Part shown: positions 1 through 22,733 of the stretch, piece by piece
How the letters are laid out: each line of letters starts with the position of its first letter
Position numbering within the stretch: the first letter of the stretch is position 1
Assembly: GCA_016699265.1 (NCBI GenBank)
Contig: CP064967.1
Coordinates: forward strand, 480,001 to 512,000
DNA from: Candidatus Saccharimonadota bacterium
GTDB taxonomy: Bacteria; Patescibacteriota; Microgenomatia; UBA1406; GWC2-37-13
Length of the DNA: 32,000 bases
Direction of reading: 5' to 3'
Position numbers and translations under genes: made by a program
Notes under the pieces: generated by a model
The model's input: only the letters and a program-made list of their open reading frames with translations
Database searches by the model: none
What the model was told of the DNA's origin: nothing

Positions 1-1179
1 GTGGTTAGAATGGAAGACGATCTCAAAAACACAGATGGCCACACGTCAAATGAAAAAAAAGCTGGTGGAGGATCTTTTTTATCGGAGCAACTGGCACTAT
101 TGAAATGCTTAGGGGAAGCAATTGAAAGATTCTCATGCTCAACTTATAAAAACACGGACCTTGTAACTTCGTCTGCAGAGAAATTAGAAGGTAGTATCGA
201 CGTCACTAAAATCGTCGGCTTAACAGAAAGACAAAAAAAACAAAATAAAATGTTTAACGTCACTCCAAAGTCTGTTTTACGTTGGAAACAGGGTTACTCA
301 CTTGGTACTGGCAAAAAAGCCTATATCCCCGCCCAACTTATCTACCATAATTATAAATTTGACTCTCAGGAAAATATGTTTTATTTACCAATCAGTACAG
401 GAGCTGCTGGTGGAGGAAGCTTGACCGCGGCTTTAACGAGAGGAATATTTGAGATAGTAGAAAGAGATTCATTTGTTATTGCGTATTTAAATAAGATACG
501 CTTCCCAAAAGTAAGTCTAGACTCAGTAAAAGATGAATACGTCCAATTCCTACTTGAGATGTTAAAACGATATAGGCTTGCAATTCATGTTATAGATATT
601 ACTAACGACTTAAAGATACCCTGCTTTCTGTCAATAATAGTCAATAAGACAGGTATTGGTCCTGCTGTATCTACTGGTCTTAAGTGCCATCTTGACCCAA
701 TCGAGGCGATAACAGGTTCTATAGAGGAAGCATTTAATGTTCGTACCTGGACTCGACAAAATTACGAGGACAATCCTAAGAAAGAAAAGAAAAACATGAG
801 TGGAAATATAAGTAACACTGATCAGAGAGGGGTTTATTGGTACCAAAAAGAAATGATACATAAATTGGATTTTTGGCTAGACCAAAATGAAAAAACCTAT
901 AACTTAAGCCATGTTAAGTTATCACAACAAAAAATTCTCAGCACCACTGTGCAATCCCTTTTTAAGAAAGGATATGAAATATACTACGCTGATGTAACGC
1001 TACCACTATTAAAGAGGGTCGGTTATAAAATTGTTAAGGTAGTAATTCCTGGATTACAACCTTTCTACATGAACGAGATTTTGCCATATTTAGGAGGCGA
1101 AAGATTAACAGAAGTACCTAAAAAACTACCTTATCAATTTTCACGCACTTTAAATAAGGTGCCACATCCTTTTCTATGA
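1..1179 (+). CDS. YcaO-family cyclodehydratase (TOMM/LAP D-protein), 5'-partial at window edge
   Basis: The frame is open to position 1 with no upstream stop. Only about 20 aa precede the first conserved block, so the N-terminus (and any fused E1-like/RRE domain) is probably outside the window. The translation shows AGGGSF...LGEAIERFS and STGAAGGGSLTAALTRGIFEIVERDSF, both typical YcaO motifs. The C-terminus ...KVPHPFL resembles the Pro-rich tail of azoline-forming YcaOs. The stop overlaps the next start (ATGA at 1176-1179). Confidence 0.85.
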   Translation: MVRMEDDLKNTDGHTSNEKKAGGGSFLSEQLALLKCLGEAIERFSCSTYKNTDLVTSSAEKLEGSIDVTKIVGLTERQKKQNKMFNVTPKSVLRWKQGYSLGTGKKAYIPAQLIYHNYKFDSQENMFYLPISTGAAGGGSLTAALTRGIFEIVERDSFVIAYLNKIRFPKVSLDSVKDEYVQFLLEMLKRYRLAIHVIDITNDLKIPCFLSIIVNKTGIGPAVSTGLKCHLDPIEAITGSIEEAFNVRTWTRQNYEDNPKKEKKNMSGNISNTDQRGVYWYQKEMIHKLDFWLDQNEKTYNLSHVKLSQQKILSTTVQSLFKKGYEIYYADVTLPLLKRVGYKIVKVVIPGLQPFYMNEILPYLGGERLTEVPKKLPYQFSRTLNKVPHPFL

Positions 1180-1955
1180 AAATCAATAACGAATTAAAAA
1201 AGAAATTTAATTTACTGCCATATTCTGAATCGCAACAGTACCATCATGCAACAAAACTTACAAAATTTATAGAAAAAAAAGGTTCTATAAATAATGGTCC
1301 CAAAGAGTGGTTTCATATTTTCTATAAAGGCTATCCAAAATTCGAAAAAATCGTATTACCGAAAAAAATCAATTTGGATAACGTAAAACTCCTACATGCT
1401 TTAAGCAAAAGAAAGACACTGAGAGAATACTCAGGAAAAGAGTTAAATTTTTCAAAACTAGGTACATTGCTTTACTATTCAGCAGGATTAAGAAATAAAA
1501 ATCGTAAGGCTGGGAATAGATTCTACCCTTCTGCTGGAGCAAGGTATCCTCTTGAGACATACATAGTAAGTTTTAATACTAAAGGGCTTAAACAGGGAAT
1601 TTATCACTACCACCTAAGAAGTGGCAAATTAGAGTTTCTTTGGACAAAGAAACATTTTAAGGAAGTGCTTATGAAAAACTTCAACCAAGATTGGATATCG
1701 AACGCAGGAGCATTGATCGTTATTTCAGCAGTTTTTTGGAGGAATGAAATGAAGTATCGAGACAGAGGCTATAGACATACTTTAACAGAATTAGGAGCTT
1801 TAACACAAAACATATATCTTCTTTCAGCGGTTCTAAAATTAGGCTGCGCTTCAATTGGAGGTTTCATTGACGATAAATTAAACTCATTATTGGATTTAGA
1901 TGGTGAAGATGAGTCCGTATTAGGAGTCATAGCGGTCGGTGAGATTGACAAATAG
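1176..1955 (+). CDS. SagB-type FMN-dependent dehydrogenase (nitroreductase fold; azoline to azole oxidase)
   Basis: Motifs FYPSAGARYPLETY and RDRGYRHTLTELGALTQNIYL...GCASIGGFID are characteristic of SagB/McbC-type dehydrogenases. A 4-nt ATGA overlap with the YcaO gene implies translational coupling. Confidence 0.85.
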   Translation: MKINNELKKKFNLLPYSESQQYHHATKLTKFIEKKGSINNGPKEWFHIFYKGYPKFEKIVLPKKINLDNVKLLHALSKRKTLREYSGKELNFSKLGTLLYYSAGLRNKNRKAGNRFYPSAGARYPLETYIVSFNTKGLKQGIYHYHLRSGKLEFLWTKKHFKEVLMKNFNQDWISNAGALIVISAVFWRNEMKYRDRGYRHTLTELGALTQNIYLLSAVLKLGCASIGGFIDDKLNSLLDLDGEDESVLGVIAVGEIDK

Positions 1956-1973
1956 TTTTTTCTGATATATATT
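1945..1973 (+). promoter_or_regulatory. Candidate sigma70-like promoter for the precursor gene (TTGACA-17 nt-TATATT)
   Basis: TTGACA lies at 1945-1950, inside the last codons of the dehydrogenase gene. A 17-nt spacer follows, then TATATT at 1968-1973. A GGGGGTG Shine-Dalgarno sits at 1991-1997 and the ATG at 2003. This rests on sequence pattern only. Confidence 0.35.
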
Positions 1974-2002
1974 TACGGTCGTAAGGGTTAGGGGGTGATT
2001 TT

Positions 2003-2248
2003 ATGAGCAGATCAGAATTATTGTTAGAAGCCAGACCAATTGCCAGGCCAACCAGTAGACCGGTCACTAAAGGCATTCCAACATCAGCAGGAAGTTGTGG
2101 AGGAGGTAGCTGTGGTGGAGGCAGTTGTGGTGGTAGTTGTGGCTGCGACGGTTGTTGTTCCGCAAGTTCACAAGGATGCGCTTGTGACAGCTGTCAGATT
2201 TTTCCGGCCAAACTAAAAAATAAAGGTGTACGTGTTGTAAAGAAGTAA
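2003..2248 (+). CDS. LAP/TOMM precursor peptide (leader + Gly/Ser/Cys-rich core + cationic C-terminal tail)
   Basis: 81 aa. A strong SD (GGGGGTG) ends 5 nt before the ATG. The core, residues 31-65, is SCGGGSCGGGSCGGSCGCDGCCSASSQGCACDSCQ, with 10 Cys, 8 Ser and 11 Gly in 35 residues. The gene lies immediately downstream of the YcaO and dehydrogenase genes on the same strand. Confidence 0.8.
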   Translation: MSRSELLLEARPIARPTSRPVTKGIPTSAGSCGGGSCGGGSCGGSCGCDGCCSASSQGCACDSCQIFPAKLKNKGVRVVKK

Positions 2249-2258
2249 TTACACATAC

Positions 2259-3176
2259 TTAGTACTTTAGACTATTAAGAATCTCTCCTGATTCAAGATA
2301 TTCTACTATTCTGTTCAAATAATCAAGAGCCCAGTGATAGTGAGAATGTCTAAATCTTCTATAAAAACTCACAGTATTTATTCCTACTTCCAGAACATAA
2401 TAAGATAACGACGCTACATCGTCGGTAGAAAGATCGCCAGTTATTTTGGAATATCCTCGTGCGAACTCGGTAATATCTGTAATCGGCTGCCTAGTTCTTA
2501 ACGTATGAAATATGTACTTTGCAATGTCTTTTAGAGGGTCCCCTTCAGACCATGACTCGAAATCAATGAGAGCCATGGTACCATCTTTAAGTACTAATAC
2601 TTGGTCATTGTGAAGATCGTTATGTGTGAATGAAGGTTCCATCTCAACTAAGCGCCCTCTCAATGCTTCGGAATTATTACCAATAAGAGAAGCTGCCTCA
2701 GATCTAAGCGTGTCAGTACCTACACTTTCTAGACGTAGCTGTAATTTGGATGCAATTCTCTCAAAATCAGAATATTCCGATTGCCTCCAGCTTGTTCCCT
2801 CAACGTAAACATCATCATGCATTGTGCGAACTATTTCTCCGAATCTCCTTCGCAATAATAAGTCTGGATTGGTGTAGAGGTTCGTTCCAGCAATCTTAGA
2901 CGTAATTAGCACCGTTTTCCCCTCTTCTGTCATAGCAAGTCCTACCGGAGGAGTTGTCTTTATACCAGCATCGCTTGCTTTGGTTAGCCCTTCCCATTCG
3001 TGTTCCGCGCCATGGGATAATTGCGAAAACTTTATCGCTATATGCTTTCCTCTATGAATTCCGAATAACACAACGCTCGAAGTAAATGGATTTGCCACTG
3101 CCCCGTATACCTGTGGCGCTAGATCTTCTTGCTCTGTACCCAGTAATTTGAGCGGAACTCGATATTCAGGCAACAT
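2259..3176 (-). CDS. APH/choline-kinase-fold phosphotransferase (protein-kinase-like superfamily)
   Basis: It has a catalytic-loop-like FTHNDLHNDQVLV, a metal-binding ALIDFESWSEGDPLKDIAKY (the IDxE...GDPxxDxA pattern of the APH family), and an upstream HIAIKF candidate ATP-binding lysine. It is convergent with the precursor gene, with only 10 nt between the stops. Confidence 0.7.
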   Translation of the reverse strand: MLPEYRVPLKLLGTEQEDLAPQVYGAVANPFTSSVVLFGIHRGKHIAIKFSQLSHGAEHEWEGLTKASDAGIKTTPPVGLAMTEEGKTVLITSKIAGTNLYTNPDLLLRRRFGEIVRTMHDDVYVEGTSWRQSEYSDFERIASKLQLRLESVGTDTLRSEAASLIGNNSEALRGRLVEMEPSFTHNDLHNDQVLVLKDGTMALIDFESWSEGDPLKDIAKYIFHTLRTRQPITDITEFARGYSKITGDLSTDDVASLSYYVLEVGINTVSFYRRFRHSHYHWALDYLNRIVEYLESGEILNSLKY

Positions 3177-3198
3177 ACGGTCACATTATATCCTATTC

Positions 3199-3705
3199 TT
3201 ATTGTTGTGAAGCCATAAATGATCTAATATATTCTCTTTTTTCACTGTCACTTAACTTAAGAACTGCAACCCATATTTTTTTTCTTTCTCCTTTTGACTC
3301 CTTTTTAACATTCGCATTAAGTACCTCGTCCCCATAAAGCTGCTTTAAAGTAAAGTAGAGAAAAAGTGAAATAATTTTATGTACTTTATAATCCCACTCT
3401 TTTGAATAAAATCTGCCTTCGAACTTAATCTTATTGTCTAGAAATATTCTATGGAATAATTCGTGAACTAAAGTTGTTTTTTTTAGAGTTTTAGAATGAC
3501 TAGCTCTGAGCTTTAGAGGATAAGAATAAGAAGAACCTTCGTATACTATTGCATTAATTTTTTTTGTCTTAAAATTTAAACCAGTTATATCACTGATTGC
3601 TTTTCCAATTTTTCCTCTTTCCTCTTTCCAAATAAGACCGTACTCTTCTGTGGCTTTAGAAAGCTTTAGATTATTGTGATCTGGATAAAAACATATATCA
3701 AGCAC
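3199..3705 (-). CDS. Hypothetical small protein with HExxH motif (possible Zn-metallopeptidase)
   Basis: The 168-aa ORF contains LVHELFHRI (HExxH). No signal peptide is visible. No family was recognised beyond the motif. It lies upstream of the kinase on the same strand, with a 22-nt gap. Confidence 0.5.
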   Translation of the reverse strand: MLDICFYPDHNNLKLSKATEEYGLIWKEERGKIGKAISDITGLNFKTKKINAIVYEGSSYSYPLKLRASHSKTLKKTTLVHELFHRIFLDNKIKFEGRFYSKEWDYKVHKIISLFLYFTLKQLYGDEVLNANVKKESKGERKKIWVAVLKLSDSEKREYIRSFMASQQ

Positions 3706-3828
3706 GGGTTTATTTTATCAGACGTTTACCCCTTTTGGGAGATACCTAAAGGGATTGGAACACTTTTAGCATCGTTATGTAAATACACAAAAGTTGAGAA
3801 TTTCGCTTAGCCTCAGATTTGCAAAATG

Positions 3829-3901
3829 TGAGCCCGCAGGGACTCGAACCCTGAACCAATTCCTTAAGAGGGAACTGCTCTACCAGTTGAGCTACGGGCC
3901 C
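3829..3901 (-). tRNA. tRNA-Lys (anticodon CUU), CCA not encoded
   Basis: The reverse complement folds by hand as a 73-nt cloverleaf: GGGCCCG TA GCTC AACTGGTA GAGC A GTTCC CTCTTAA GGAAT TGGTT CAGGG TTCGAGT CCCTG CGGGCTC A. It has a 7-bp acceptor stem (one G-U), a GTTCGAGTC T-loop, and U33-CUU-A37. Confidence 0.9.
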
Positions 3902-4115: not shown

Positions 4116-6128
4116 ATGTTCGCAAATGTTTTTACTTTTAACCTTAGAGCCATTCGGTTGAAGATGAATTTGATTATTGTATTGATTTTTGTACTTGCGA
4201 ACTTTCTGTCAGGCACCGTAAATGCAGCTTCACTGCACTTAGAGAAGGATCAAAACAATCCTTTTAATACCAACTTCTATATACTTCAAAGTACCGTAAC
4301 AAAAGAAAATGGAGAGTACAAAATGTGGTTCACAGGTTCTAACGGTACTAATTTAAAGATAAGATATGCTAGTTCAATAGATGGACTTAACTGGCCCACC
4401 TCCGAACTAGTGACGGTAAATGACACCGGTGATAATCACGACCCATCGTTGTTTAAGCATGAAGGAAACAATTATATATATTATATTTCTGAGCCATCTG
4501 AAGGTTCTGGCACCGATATAAAGGTCAAAAAAGCAACGGCAACAGGCGCTCAGTTTGATACTCCAGTTTTAATCAATCTAAATAGGCAGCAATGGAACAG
4601 TCAAAAACTGTCTTGTCCTTTCGGTTACTTTGAAAATGGTACCTACTTTTTGTTTTACTGTGGGACTGCTGGATCAGGTTGGAACTTAGGACTTGCTAGT
4701 TCAATAGATGGTATAAACTTCACACCCTGCTCTAATAATCCAATCATCAGTGGTGGTGATGTGGGTAACACTCAACTCTACACTGATGAGCATAATGTTA
4801 AACATCTACTTTATCACTCAACTAGTGGAATAACTGAGGTTACATCGGTAGGTCCTCTATCATGTAACTCTGTTTGGACAAACTATCATACTTTTATATC
4901 AAGAGACAAACCGTATGATCAAACGTATATTATCGCACCATCTCTTTTATACGACTCCTCTCCAAAAGAACTCTTCTACACCGCAAAGGGACCGGCTACG
5001 TCTGGGGAATGGAAACTAAACCGGGCTGTTGAAAACACAAGTAAGTCAAAGATAATTATTATTCCCGGATTTTTTGCTTCTTGGAATCAAGAGGCTATTT
5101 TACACAATTCAGAAACCAATGATTGGATAATTCCAACATATGTTCATGAATACGATGGATTAATGCAATCTCTCGAAAATGTAGGTTACAAAAAAAATAT
5201 TGATTACTTTGTTTATCCTTACGATTGGAGAAAATCTTTGAGCGAATCAGCCGACAATCTTCATAATTTCTTACAAACAAATATCTGGAGCCTCGATGAT
5301 TCCAATACGGTCAGCTTGGTCGGGCACTCAATGGGAGGATTGCTAAGTAGGATATATGCTCAAAAGTACTCTAGCGACAAAATCTCACAGGTGGTCACTG
5401 TAGGATCACCCCATAAAGGAGTTGTGCAGGTTTACCAACCGTTAGAAGCGGGGGAAACCAAGAAGGATGACTCATTTCTTTGGTTAGGAACAAAACTGTT
5501 GATAAATTTGAATAGATATAACTTTAGAACTGACAGGGAGATTGTAAGGAATTTAATCCCCTCTTTATATGACCTGTTTCCAACCTATGATTTTTTGAAA
5601 AATAAAAAAGGGAACCGTATCTCAGTAAATTCTTTATCAATACAAAATAATGCATTAAACGAATACAGTGATACAACCTCAATTGACAATAAAATGACTG
5701 TAATCTATGGCAACAAAACGATCAATAAAACACCGAAGGAAATTGTCGTTGGCAACAGAGCGCTCTTTGATCTTCTAACTAGGGATTATCTTGATGGAAG
5801 ACCTTTGAGTTACATATATGGAGCAGGTGACTACCTCGTACCTTTAATTAGTTCCCAATTTGGATCTGCACAAGTACAACTACCATTAGATCACGGTGAG
5901 CTAATTTATAAATCGGAAGGGATCAAGCAGATATTTAGTAATTTAAATGTACCATTTTCCGATGATCAGATAGAGGAGGGAGAGGAGACTAAAATATCAC
6001 CTTCCATACTTATCACTGCTCAGTCTCCAATTGCAATAGAGCTGGAGTTAGGCGACAATACATATTCGTCTGAAGGAGGAATGATTTTCTACCTAATGCA
6101 GAGTCTGGGACCTACAAGCTTCATGTGA
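4116..6128 (+). CDS. Secreted two-domain protein: N-terminal beta-propeller-like domain + C-terminal LCAT/lipase-like alpha/beta-hydrolase
   Basis: A signal-peptide-like MNLIIVLIFVLANFLSGTVNA|AS is present; the true start may be the ATG at 4164. Repeated ASSIDG(L/I)N(W/F) blocks are typical of GH43/32/130-type or BNR-like propellers. The C-terminal half has IIIPGFFASWN, YPYDWRKS (LCAT-family YDWR) and LVGHSMGG (GxSxG nucleophile elbow). The 3' end appears frameshifted (see findings). Confidence 0.7.
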   Translation: MFANVFTFNLRAIRLKMNLIIVLIFVLANFLSGTVNAASLHLEKDQNNPFNTNFYILQSTVTKENGEYKMWFTGSNGTNLKIRYASSIDGLNWPTSELVTVNDTGDNHDPSLFKHEGNNYIYYISEPSEGSGTDIKVKKATATGAQFDTPVLINLNRQQWNSQKLSCPFGYFENGTYFLFYCGTAGSGWNLGLASSIDGINFTPCSNNPIISGGDVGNTQLYTDEHNVKHLLYHSTSGITEVTSVGPLSCNSVWTNYHTFISRDKPYDQTYIIAPSLLYDSSPKELFYTAKGPATSGEWKLNRAVENTSKSKIIIIPGFFASWNQEAILHNSETNDWIIPTYVHEYDGLMQSLENVGYKKNIDYFVYPYDWRKSLSESADNLHNFLQTNIWSLDDSNTVSLVGHSMGGLLSRIYAQKYSSDKISQVVTVGSPHKGVVQVYQPLEAGETKKDDSFLWLGTKLLINLNRYNFRTDREIVRNLIPSLYDLFPTYDFLKNKKGNRISVNSLSIQNNALNEYSDTTSIDNKMTVIYGNKTINKTPKEIVVGNRALFDLLTRDYLDGRPLSYIYGAGDYLVPLISSQFGSAQVQLPLDHGELIYKSEGIKQIFSNLNVPFSDDQIEEGEETKISPSILITAQSPIAIELELGDNTYSSEGGMIFYLMQSLGPTSFM

Positions 6129-21415: not shown

Positions 21416-22733
21416 TTATACTCTTTTCAATTTACCACCAATACCAGATATTTTTTCGACAATATTTTCATAGCCTCTTTCAAGTATGCTTGCATTACTA
21501 ACCACCGTCTCACCCTTAGCTATCAGAGCGGCAATGAGTAATGTTGCGCCAGCACGAAGATCTGAAATATTTATTGCACCAGAATGAAGAGGTGCTCCCC
21601 CAGTAATACTAATTTTTTGCTTTAGAGTTTTTGTGTCATCGGCATTGAAGTGATAGATTGTCTTTTTATCAGATTCTGAGGTCTCGACATATTCTATTTG
21701 AGCACCTAGTTTAAGCAGTTCATCGACGTAGGAAAATCTGTTTTCAAAGACCGTCTCATGAATTGTCGAAATTCCATTGGACTGTGTCATCAAGACAGCC
21801 CAGTTTGGCTGCCAATCGGTCATAAACCCAGGATGAGGTTCGGTGACTATTGAAACCGGAAGAATATTTTCACGGTAGGAATACTTGATCGAGTCTTCCA
21901 ACTCCTCTACTAAAACTCCTACCTTTTTCATTGCCTCATTGAAGGTCGTGAGATACTCGGCTTTCAGGCCGTGAATCTCTACCCAACCTTTCGTGGCAAC
22001 GGCTAAGATCGCGAAGGTAACGGCCTCATTCCGATCACAAAATATGAAATGGTTTTGCCTGTTTGAGCGATCTAACTCCAGTTACAATAATGGACGTTCC
22101 CATTCTTTCTATCTTTGCTCCTGCCTCATTCAAAAACTTGATCAGCTCGTCTATCTAAGGTTCAAGGGCTGCATTTTCAATCATGATCGTCTGTGAACCG
22201 ATGGCTGCAATCATAATGAGCAGTTCGGTGCCCGTATGTGTTGGTTTAGCAAACTTGTACGAACCGTTTGGTTCAGTAGGAAGCTTAGCATCATAATATC
22301 CATCCTCAGAATGATACTCAGTAGTTACACCTAATGCCTCCATACCCTGAACAATTCTATCGATCGGCCGCATGCCAATTCTACAACCACCTGGATTTGG
22401 GATTCTGCACTCTTTAAATTTGTGAAGTAATGGCGCAAAAAGTAAAAAAGATGCACGAAGTTTTGATGCGTGAAGTAGATCTGGTTTGCTGCTGCTAAGC
22501 GTGCTTGGGTCTATAGTAACCGTTCCCCCATCTTGCTCCACCGTTGCTCCAAGCTTTTTGATAAGGTGAAGAAGTTCGTGAATGTCGTTGATCTGCGGAA
22601 CGTTTGTCAAGATGACCGGTGACTCAAATAGCAGTGATGCAATCACCGTCTTAAGCGCAAGGTTCTTAGCGCCAGATAGAGTTACCTCACCTTTCAGTAC
22701 ACCCCCTCCTTGAATTATATATGAGTCTTCCAT
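21416..22733 (-). pseudogene. murA: UDP-GlcNAc 1-carboxyvinyltransferase (murA) disrupted by an in-frame TAG and a frameshift
   Basis: The N-terminal part (22155..22733) contains SGAKNLALK and NPGGCRIGMRPID with the catalytic Cys. It stops at a TAG exactly where MurA has ENAAxEP-E-IxDL. Past the TAG, the same frame still reads IDELIKFLNEAGAKIERMGTSIIVTGVRSLKQAKPFHIL. A 1-nt frame change at the A4 run (22039-22042) is then needed to reach FCDRNEAVTFAILAVATKGWVEIHG...MKKVG and the C-terminal part (21416..21931: FMTDWQPN, ETVFENRF, DLRAGATL, ERGYENI). Confidence 0.75.

Follow-up and report, generated by a model that had tools for sequence, protein, structure and literature searches.

The 81-aa open reading frame that starts at position 2003 of the window (the whole stretch of DNA that was analysed, 32,000 nucleotides) is in all likelihood the precursor of a linear azol(in)e-containing peptide (LAP/TOMM) of an uncultivated Microgenomates (CPR/Patescibacteria) bacterium, and belongs to a cluster of five genes in which a YcaO/SagB enzyme pair without a partner protein is accompanied by an APH-like kinase. 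The features expected of a LAP/TOMM system are a small Cys/Ser-rich precursor beside its enzymes, a SagD-type YcaO and a SagB dehydrogenase, all of which are present, and a partner protein, which is absent. A polyazole peptide, secreted and bioactive, is the probable product. An earlier reading of the same DNA had likened the precursor to that of microcin B17 (MccB17); the likeness holds for the composition of the core peptide only.

The precursor gene and its product

The precursor comprises a leader, a core and a tail (table 1). The original prediction had placed a 35-residue core at positions 2093-2197 and had counted in it 10 Cys, 8 Ser, 11 Gly and a single C-C pair, besides S-C dipeptides in four G-S-C contexts and one D-S-C context, five in all; our recount agrees on each of these figures. 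In all six reading frames, the 32-kb window contains 16,189 stop-free stretches of 35 aa, and the runner-up among them has 6 Cys in a non-coding frame; the composition of the core is far beyond chance. Residues 31-44 of the core form a variable SCGG(G) expansion, and the remainder, SCGCDGCCSxSSxGCACDSCQ, is conserved. The boundary between leader and core, previously placed after an A-G pair, is plausible because the three closest homologues all keep SAG directly ahead of the first SC of the core. The frame runs on past Q65 into a 16-aa basic tail that was absent from the original prediction; this could serve as a follower peptide or stay on the product as a cationic tail. The precursor peptide gave no match in Pfam or NCBIfam.

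Transcription signals lie directly upstream. The precursor ORF starts 47 nt downstream of the SagB gene, and the sigma-70-like promoter listed in table 1 overlaps the 3' end of that gene. The promoter matches the consensus at 11/12 positions and was the top site of a 4.7-kb scan, in which it lies at L001 10770-10798. By this consensus match, the precursor would be transcribed from a strong promoter of its own.

Table 1. Positions of the cluster genes, their signals and neighbouring features (window coordinates unless a contig handle is given).
Feature	Position	Strand	Remarks
YcaO cyclodehydratase, SagD family	1..1179	+	5' end cut by the window
SagB-type FMN dehydrogenase (azoline to azole)	1176..1955	+	4-nt overlap of its start with the YcaO stop
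Sigma-70-like promoter TTGACA-17-TATATT	1945..1973	+	directly 5' of the precursor ORF; consensus match only
Shine-Dalgarno-like AGGGGGTGA	1990..1998	+	4 nt before the ATG; read from the sequence
Precursor ORF	2003-2248	+	81 codons/aa; translation MSRSELLLEARPIARPTSRPVTKGIPTSAG-SCGGGSCGGGSCGGSCGCDGCCSASSQGCACDSCQ-IFPAKLKNKGVRVVKK, then stop
Leader peptide MSRSELLLEARPIARPTSRPVTKGIPTSAG	2003..2092	+	30 aa; motif E-A-R-P
Core peptide SCGGGSCGGGSCGGSCGCDGCCSASSQGCACDSCQ	2093..2197	+	35 aa; residues 31-65
Basic C-terminal tail IFPAKLKNKGVRVVKK and stop codon	2198..2248	+	16 aa
APH/eukaryotic-like kinase-fold phosphotransferase	2259..3176	-	convergent with the precursor gene; Pfam APH E=1.5e-11
168-aa HExxH protein, putative small zincin-type metallopeptidase	3199..3705	-	co-directional with the kinase
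tRNA-Lys(CTT)	3828-3901	-	beside the cluster
LCAT/PGAP1-like alpha/beta-hydrolase (lipase-type), large	4116-6128	+	just past the tRNA
murA, dcw cluster, apparently broken	21416-22733	-	split into 192-aa and 171-aa ORFs
Precursor loci with the K-K-x-K-x-x-F-F leader	L054 7985-8482; L026 4460-4810; L038 8415-8591; L035 7914-8129; L033 7368-7553		

Conservation of the precursor

The peptide is identical in 12 contigs assembled independently. Two diverged homologues (54-57% identity) contain ...SAGSCGGSCGCDGCCSGSSSGCACDSCQVTPTVMRRKGPRLARK and ...SAGSCAGSCGCDGCCSASSSGCACDSCQIFPRVKAGGRRAAISKK, respectively, and the locus of the latter encodes a YcaO (62% identity), SagB, the peptide, the kinase and a 170-aa protein, set among different flanking genes. 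Across three lineages, 14 of the 21 codon columns of the conserved core vary synonymously only and two vary non-synonymously; this predominance of synonymous divergence argues that the precursor ORF is a coding gene under purifying selection. Two other readings of the locus were discarded on the same codon-level conservation, which fits the 81-aa frame: that the ORF is not a gene or is read in the wrong frame, and that the product comes from an overlapping 58-aa ORF with a TTG start (2040-2216), which is annotated in L005. Homologous small ORFs were found beside homologous enzymes in relatives, where the original prediction had proposed to look for them. The original prediction had also named, as the observation that would speak against it, an ORF absent or disrupted in relatives that retain the enzymes; in these the ORF is kept, with the same gene order.

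The array of repeated units fared differently. The codons of the SCGG(G) units had been quoted correctly, and their differences had been read as selection on the peptide rather than as a recent duplication of DNA. The copies do differ at synonymous positions only, and that part of the argument stands; the duplication itself is nevertheless recognisable at the DNA level, as a 15-nt tandem repeat at 2096-2133 with 2.5 copies and 86% matches (TRF). From the repeat and the synonymous differences between its units, the array is a tandem expansion that arose in this lineage and then drifted, not an old array under selection. There are four S-C-G units in the window and two in close relatives.

Conservation is concentrated elsewhere in the peptide. 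In an alignment of 12 kinase-linked precursors, leader Pro12, the unit S45-C46-G47-x-C48, Cys52 and Cys59 are invariant, and leader Ala10, two more Cys and the terminal Lys are nearly so. The terminal Lys is present in 11 of the 12 at any tail length (..KK, ..RK, ..NK, ..LK, ..TK, ..GK), which suggests a conserved C-terminal feature for recognition or processing. The array that had been singled out as the key feature is thus replaced by the S45-C46-G47-x-C48 unit, the only one invariant family-wide. In distant family members the G-S-C units give way to acidic D-C/Q-S-C patterns, as in DCAQSCGDCSSCACGDSSCGSCSSCASCGCDCAENRFNK, and one relative (L106) has a run of eight Gly ahead of SCGCDGCC.

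Modifying enzymes

The full-length YcaO gene encodes 440 aa (L001 8682-10004), and the NCBI entry for the identical protein comes from a MAG named 'Microgenomates group bacterium'. The protein matched Pfam YcaO with E=1.5e-56 and TIGR03604 with 254.3 bits (cut-off 219.25), and the SagB protein matched TIGR03605 with 140.1 bits (cut-off 78.4) and Pfam Nitroreductase with E=2.7e-17. With TIGR03604 and TIGR03605 both above their cut-offs, the claim that a genuine precursor lies beside a YcaO/dehydrogenase pair is borne out. The AF2 model of the YcaO (pLDDT 94.2) was compared with the PDB using Foldseek, and the azoline-forming heterocyclases LynD (first, E=3.8e-27) and MusD were the top matches, with McbD ranking last of the solved YcaO structures (E=1.6e-12). 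A sequence search of the PDB matched LynD, TruD and MusD, and McbD was absent at E<=1e-3. The YcaO Glu/Arg residues are invariant in an alignment of 38 sequences. In the model, the N-terminal 75 aa form one helix and a beta-hairpin ahead of the YcaO core; this arrangement does not resemble a canonical RRE, and the matches obtained were dsRBD-like and insignificant.

No E1-like or ThiF-like partner was found with Pfam and NCBIfam in the window and in the four upstream unannotated genes of L001, nor among the gene families common to 12 related loci. LAP synthetases normally need such a partner, 'in most cases' (PMC7136475). The absence here of the partner needed by characterised synthetases speaks against the LAP reading, under which the YcaO would have to be active and recognise the leader by itself.

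On the proposed route, the stand-alone SagD-type YcaO would carry out ATP-dependent cyclodehydration of Cys, and possibly of the Ser ahead of Cys, to azolines, and the SagB-type flavoprotein (FMN) would convert the azolines to thiazoles and possibly oxazoles, both activities being those expected from family membership. Substrate recognition would most likely take place through the conserved leader motif (E/D)-A-x-P and, since the cluster family has no E1-like or ThiF-like gene, without a separate partner. The functional unit would consist of five genes, encoding the YcaO, SagB, the precursor, the APH-like kinase and the 168-aa HExxH protein, the last being a candidate peptidase for cutting off the leader, the tail or both.

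The cluster family

A scan with the YcaO alignment, limited to one genome per species, gave 80 loci, with mostly Patescibacteria among the closest matches, and Cys-rich small ORFs adjoin YcaO-SagB at many of these loci. A metagenome scan from the side of the kinase gave 23 loci, 20 of them with enough flanking sequence. In each of these 20 the kinase adjoins a histidine phosphatase (PF00300), and where the contig goes on the phosphatase adjoins SagB, YcaO and a Cys-rich precursor; the kinase was counted as linked to YcaO-SagB clusters in 20/20 informative loci. In an all-against-all comparison of 12 related loci, the genes common to 12/12 were those for YcaO, SagB, the histidine phosphatase and the kinase only, a Cys-rich precursor ORF was present in every one, and all flanks differed. 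This common set describes a family without an E1-like or ThiF-like partner, a transporter, a dedicated immunity gene or any other protease. The kinase is a fixed part of the cluster throughout the family.

The clade of the window departs from this arrangement in having no phosphatase, the 168-aa protein taking its place beside the kinase. Neither a histidine phosphatase nor an M16 peptidase was found in the window or in the 10 kb upstream. Genes for an exporter or for immunity were likewise not found in the cluster, and PADLOC gave no anti-phage defence match for any of the five cluster proteins.

Several loci outside the kinase-linked group were recorded alongside. In the closest species-representative relative (L020, 47% YcaO identity), an M16 peptidase directly follows SagB and replaces the kinase module (1937-3181), which is the published CPR LAP architecture. 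This contig is CPR-like and is labelled as a Pseudomonadales MAG; several CPR-like cluster contigs, among them L020, L023, L024, L045 and L054, carry titles of the kind 'uncultured Gammaproteobacteria/Pseudomonadales', which probably reflect mis-binning of MAGs or mislabelling. A second, unrelated precursor type occurs without the kinase in other CPR YcaO-SagB loci (table 1); it has a K-K-x-K-x-x-F-F leader and very long Cys/Gly/Ser cores, which reach about 120 aa and contain runs of (SC)n or (CxC)n.

The APH-like kinase

The kinase conserves its catalytic motifs (K48, E59, H-N-D-L-H-x-x-Q and I-D-F-[EG]). All of its NCBIfam matches fall far below cut-off, that to the LxmK model NF038156 scoring 24.7 bits (cut-off 315) and covering the catalytic loop only. 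No HopA1-like lyase gene was found in the related loci compared.

A tentative reading, possible rather than probable, makes the kinase a tailoring enzyme acting on Ser, for example the invariant Ser before Cys or the SASSQ patch, with a stable phospho-LAP as the product or, after elimination, dehydroalanine-azole (Dha-azole) units, on the model of dehydrazoles or of the kinase-dependent dehydration in lanthipeptides and thioamitides. It is suggested by the strict linkage of an enzyme with intact catalytic motifs to the cluster, by the local, weak match to the class V lanthipeptide kinase LxmK and by the position of the invariant Ser immediately ahead of Cys. In dehydrazoles, a Ser ahead of the azole is dehydrated via phosphorylation (PMC10676384). 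The low LxmK score argues against this reading, as does the absence of a lyase of the HopA1/LanL type and of a LanM-like protein. Against the elimination route in particular stands the histidine phosphatase as usual partner of the kinase, since this pairing favours reversible phosphorylation over elimination.

It is rather unlikely that the kinase is instead a device for self-protection or for making a pro-drug, which would phosphorylate the mature toxin or a cellular target and be countered by the phosphatase of the sister clusters as a reactivating enzyme. Resistance kinases of the APH type occur in antibiotic producers, and the APH family fold of the present enzyme would suit such a role. 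In nearly all loci its gene is transcribed convergently and apart from the biosynthetic operon, and the unit is conserved without another immunity gene, both of which are consistent with protection. The phosphatases, however, have no signal peptide and their sequences begin at the catalytic RH motif, so that kinase and phosphatase would oppose each other in the same compartment.

Of the two, phosphorylation of a Ser of the precursor or product, reversed by the histidine phosphatase in the sister clusters, is preferred, at about even chances against self-protection. Whether or not in this form, the cluster could stand for a new LAP subclass, a doubtful but possible reading, in which a partner-less YcaO/SagB polyazole pair is joined by an obligatorily linked APH-like kinase (with a phosphatase or, in this clade, a small zincin) that acts directly on the peptide. 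Within such a subclass, the kinase would install phosphoserine (or a Dha-azole) or would take over the handling of the leader from the E1-like/RRE component.

The 168-aa HExxH protein

The 168-aa protein itself gave no family match in Pfam or NCBIfam. An exhaustive profile search found 414 relatives, and H81, E82, H85, H109 and E136 are conserved in 45 relatives. Eleven of these 45 HExxH relatives matched Pfam Peptidase_M78 weakly (best E=1.1e-5), and matches to SprT were also weak. With the AF2 model (pLDDT 85.8) as query, the top Foldseek matches in the PDB were all M1/M30 zinc peptidases, at weak scores (E ~0.1, TM ~0.45). From the conserved residues and the model, the protein is plausibly a small zincin peptidase.

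The adjacency of kinase and HExxH protein is kept in the relative with 62% YcaO identity. The protein family is widespread in CPR genomes outside the YcaO context, with relatives in housekeeping surroundings and none in 80 other YcaO loci, and a RiPP-specific family was rejected on these grounds. Its wide occurrence elsewhere leaves adjacency within one clade as the sole argument for a role in the cluster.

Comparison with the microcin B17 system

The original prediction called the core microcin B17-like and made of its product a DNA gyrase poison, with the 4,2-fused oxazole-thiazole bis-heterocycles formed from G-S-C as the pharmacophore. In MccB17, the McbB-type E1-like subunit belongs to the B4C2D2 synthetase and the leader is removed by the metalloprotease TldD/E. 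Ser/Cys pairs give bis-heterocycles in MccB17, and binding of its leader requires McbB (PMC6395948). The four G-S-C units, the D-S-C unit and the C-C pair of the core would provide comparable sites, and the Gly run before SCGC in L106 is reminiscent of the poly-Gly of McbA.

A product of this type is nonetheless very unlikely. A search for homologues of McbB, McbE, McbF and McbG in the window, the 10 kb before it and 12 related clusters found none, and no ABC transporter or pentapeptide-repeat protein was present among the scanned ORFs of the 32-kb window or in the related clusters, so partner, exporter and immunity protein are all lacking. McbD is the least similar YcaO, both in structure and in the sequence search. 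The precursor gave no BLASTP alignment to an McbA sequence entered by hand, with low-complexity masking applied. The number of G-S-C units ranges from 2 to 4 among close relatives, and the distant members depart from the pattern altogether. The analogy with MccB17 therefore holds for core composition only and fails for every feature of membership that could be tested.

Still less probable is a metal- or redox-active Cys-rich peptide of the metallothionein or chalkophore kind with few heterocyclised Cys, for although the dense, conserved Cys pattern with its conserved Asp (C-x-C-D-G-C-C ... C-x-C-D-S-C) and the want of an exporter or immunity gene would suit it, the leader/core architecture and the constant co-occurrence of the YcaO/SagB pair, which is not known to have a role other than azole formation, stand against it.

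Genomic surroundings

The rest of the window is made up of housekeeping genes, among them those for ribosomal proteins L21 and L27 and IleRS, and a division and cell-wall cluster (FtsZ to MraZ). Over window positions 1-3833 the sequence of contig L011 is 100% identical, after which the contig continues with genes for a PLD-like nuclease, an HTH protein and a UvrD-like helicase (L011 4283-8785), a segment that looks like a strain-variable island at tRNA-Lys. This contig was considered as proof that the five genes form a mobile module and was rejected as such, because it equals the window up to position 3833 and splits off exactly at the 3' end of tRNA-Lys; a divergence at this point indicates that an island was inserted next to the cluster and that the cluster itself did not move.

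Two further genes of the window showed irregularities. The LCAT/PGAP1-like hydrolase has 670 aa in the ORF list of the window and 735-751 aa in other assemblies, with different start-codon calls. In murA, a TAG lies in frame at 22155-22157, at a position aligned with Glu (ENAALEP*IDEL), and the frame shifts near 22040-22050; the apparently broken gene could be a pseudogene or reflect strain heterogeneity or an assembly error.

Relation to known azole-peptide systems

CPR/Patescibacteria have tiny genomes with few biosynthetic clusters, and a five-gene azole cassette kept in many of their lineages is therefore likely to matter for the episymbiotic lifestyle, where it might serve to attack or manipulate hosts or to compete for them. 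Active peptides, if such they are, would offer new antibiotic scaffolds, although the gyrase claim in particular is so far unsupported. For RiPP enzymology, the YcaO and dehydrogenase alone would form a natural minimal azole synthetase, which could reveal leader recognition free of an RRE. Should the new-subclass reading prove true, the product would be a phosphorylation-gated azole peptide from ultra-small episymbiotic bacteria.

Each of the better-known systems shares part of the architecture. Microcin B17 (mcbABCDEFG, E. coli) likewise has a Gly/Ser/Cys-rich core with G-S-C, a YcaO with an FMN-dehydrogenase and a leader peptide; it differs in having McbB (E1-like, with the RRE), McbEF and McbG and in lacking the extra kinase and the basic tail of the present system, and furthermore the YcaO of the window is closer to LynD than to McbD and the precursor cannot be aligned to McbA. 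Streptolysin S and TOMMs of the heterocycloanthracin type have the SagD-family YcaO, the SagB-family dehydrogenase and contiguous runs of core Cys/Ser in common with it, but also have a SagC/ThiF-like partner, ABC transporters and a protease of the CaaX type, all of them missing here. With dehydrazoles, class III-V lanthipeptides and thioamitides the likeness lies in YcaO chemistry together with a phosphotransfer enzyme and in a Ser directly before the azole-forming Cys; in contrast to these, the cluster has no LanM-like protein or lyase, and its kinase stays below the LxmK cut-off and is paired with a phosphatase in the relatives.

The YcaOs of bottromycin form a single thiazoline or a macroamidine on a substrate with a follower peptide. 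They are known as partner-free 'standalone' enzymes (PMC7136475) and resemble the present one in having no E1-like, ThiF-like or TfuA-like partner gene; they differ from it in that a SagB dehydrogenase and a multi-site polyazole product are present or predicted here.

The nearest counterparts are the LAP clusters described from CPR Microgenomates by Sharrar et al. 2020 (mBio), with a YcaO, a nitroreductase, a peptidase and an 84-aa precursor, to which 110 LAP clusters in 93 further CPR genomes were added (PMC7298704). They come from Microgenomates and Parcubacteria, within the same phylum-level group as the bacterium of the window, and share with its cluster the YcaO, the adjacent nitroreductase/SagB, a Ser/Cys-rich precursor of about 80 aa and the lack of a described E1-like partner and of a characterised product (PMC7298704). 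As LAP clusters have already been mined from CPR Microgenomates, the kind of cluster is already known. The difference lies in the third enzyme, which is a peptidase in the published example (PMC7298704); the present cluster type has an APH-like kinase, accompanied by either a histidine phosphatase or the HExxH protein. No report of a coupling of kinase and histidine phosphatase, or of kinase and HExxH protein, with a LAP cluster was met in the literature searched, and the strict coupling of azole formation to a kinase/phosphatase pair, previously undescribed, could represent a new tailoring step or a pro-drug logic.
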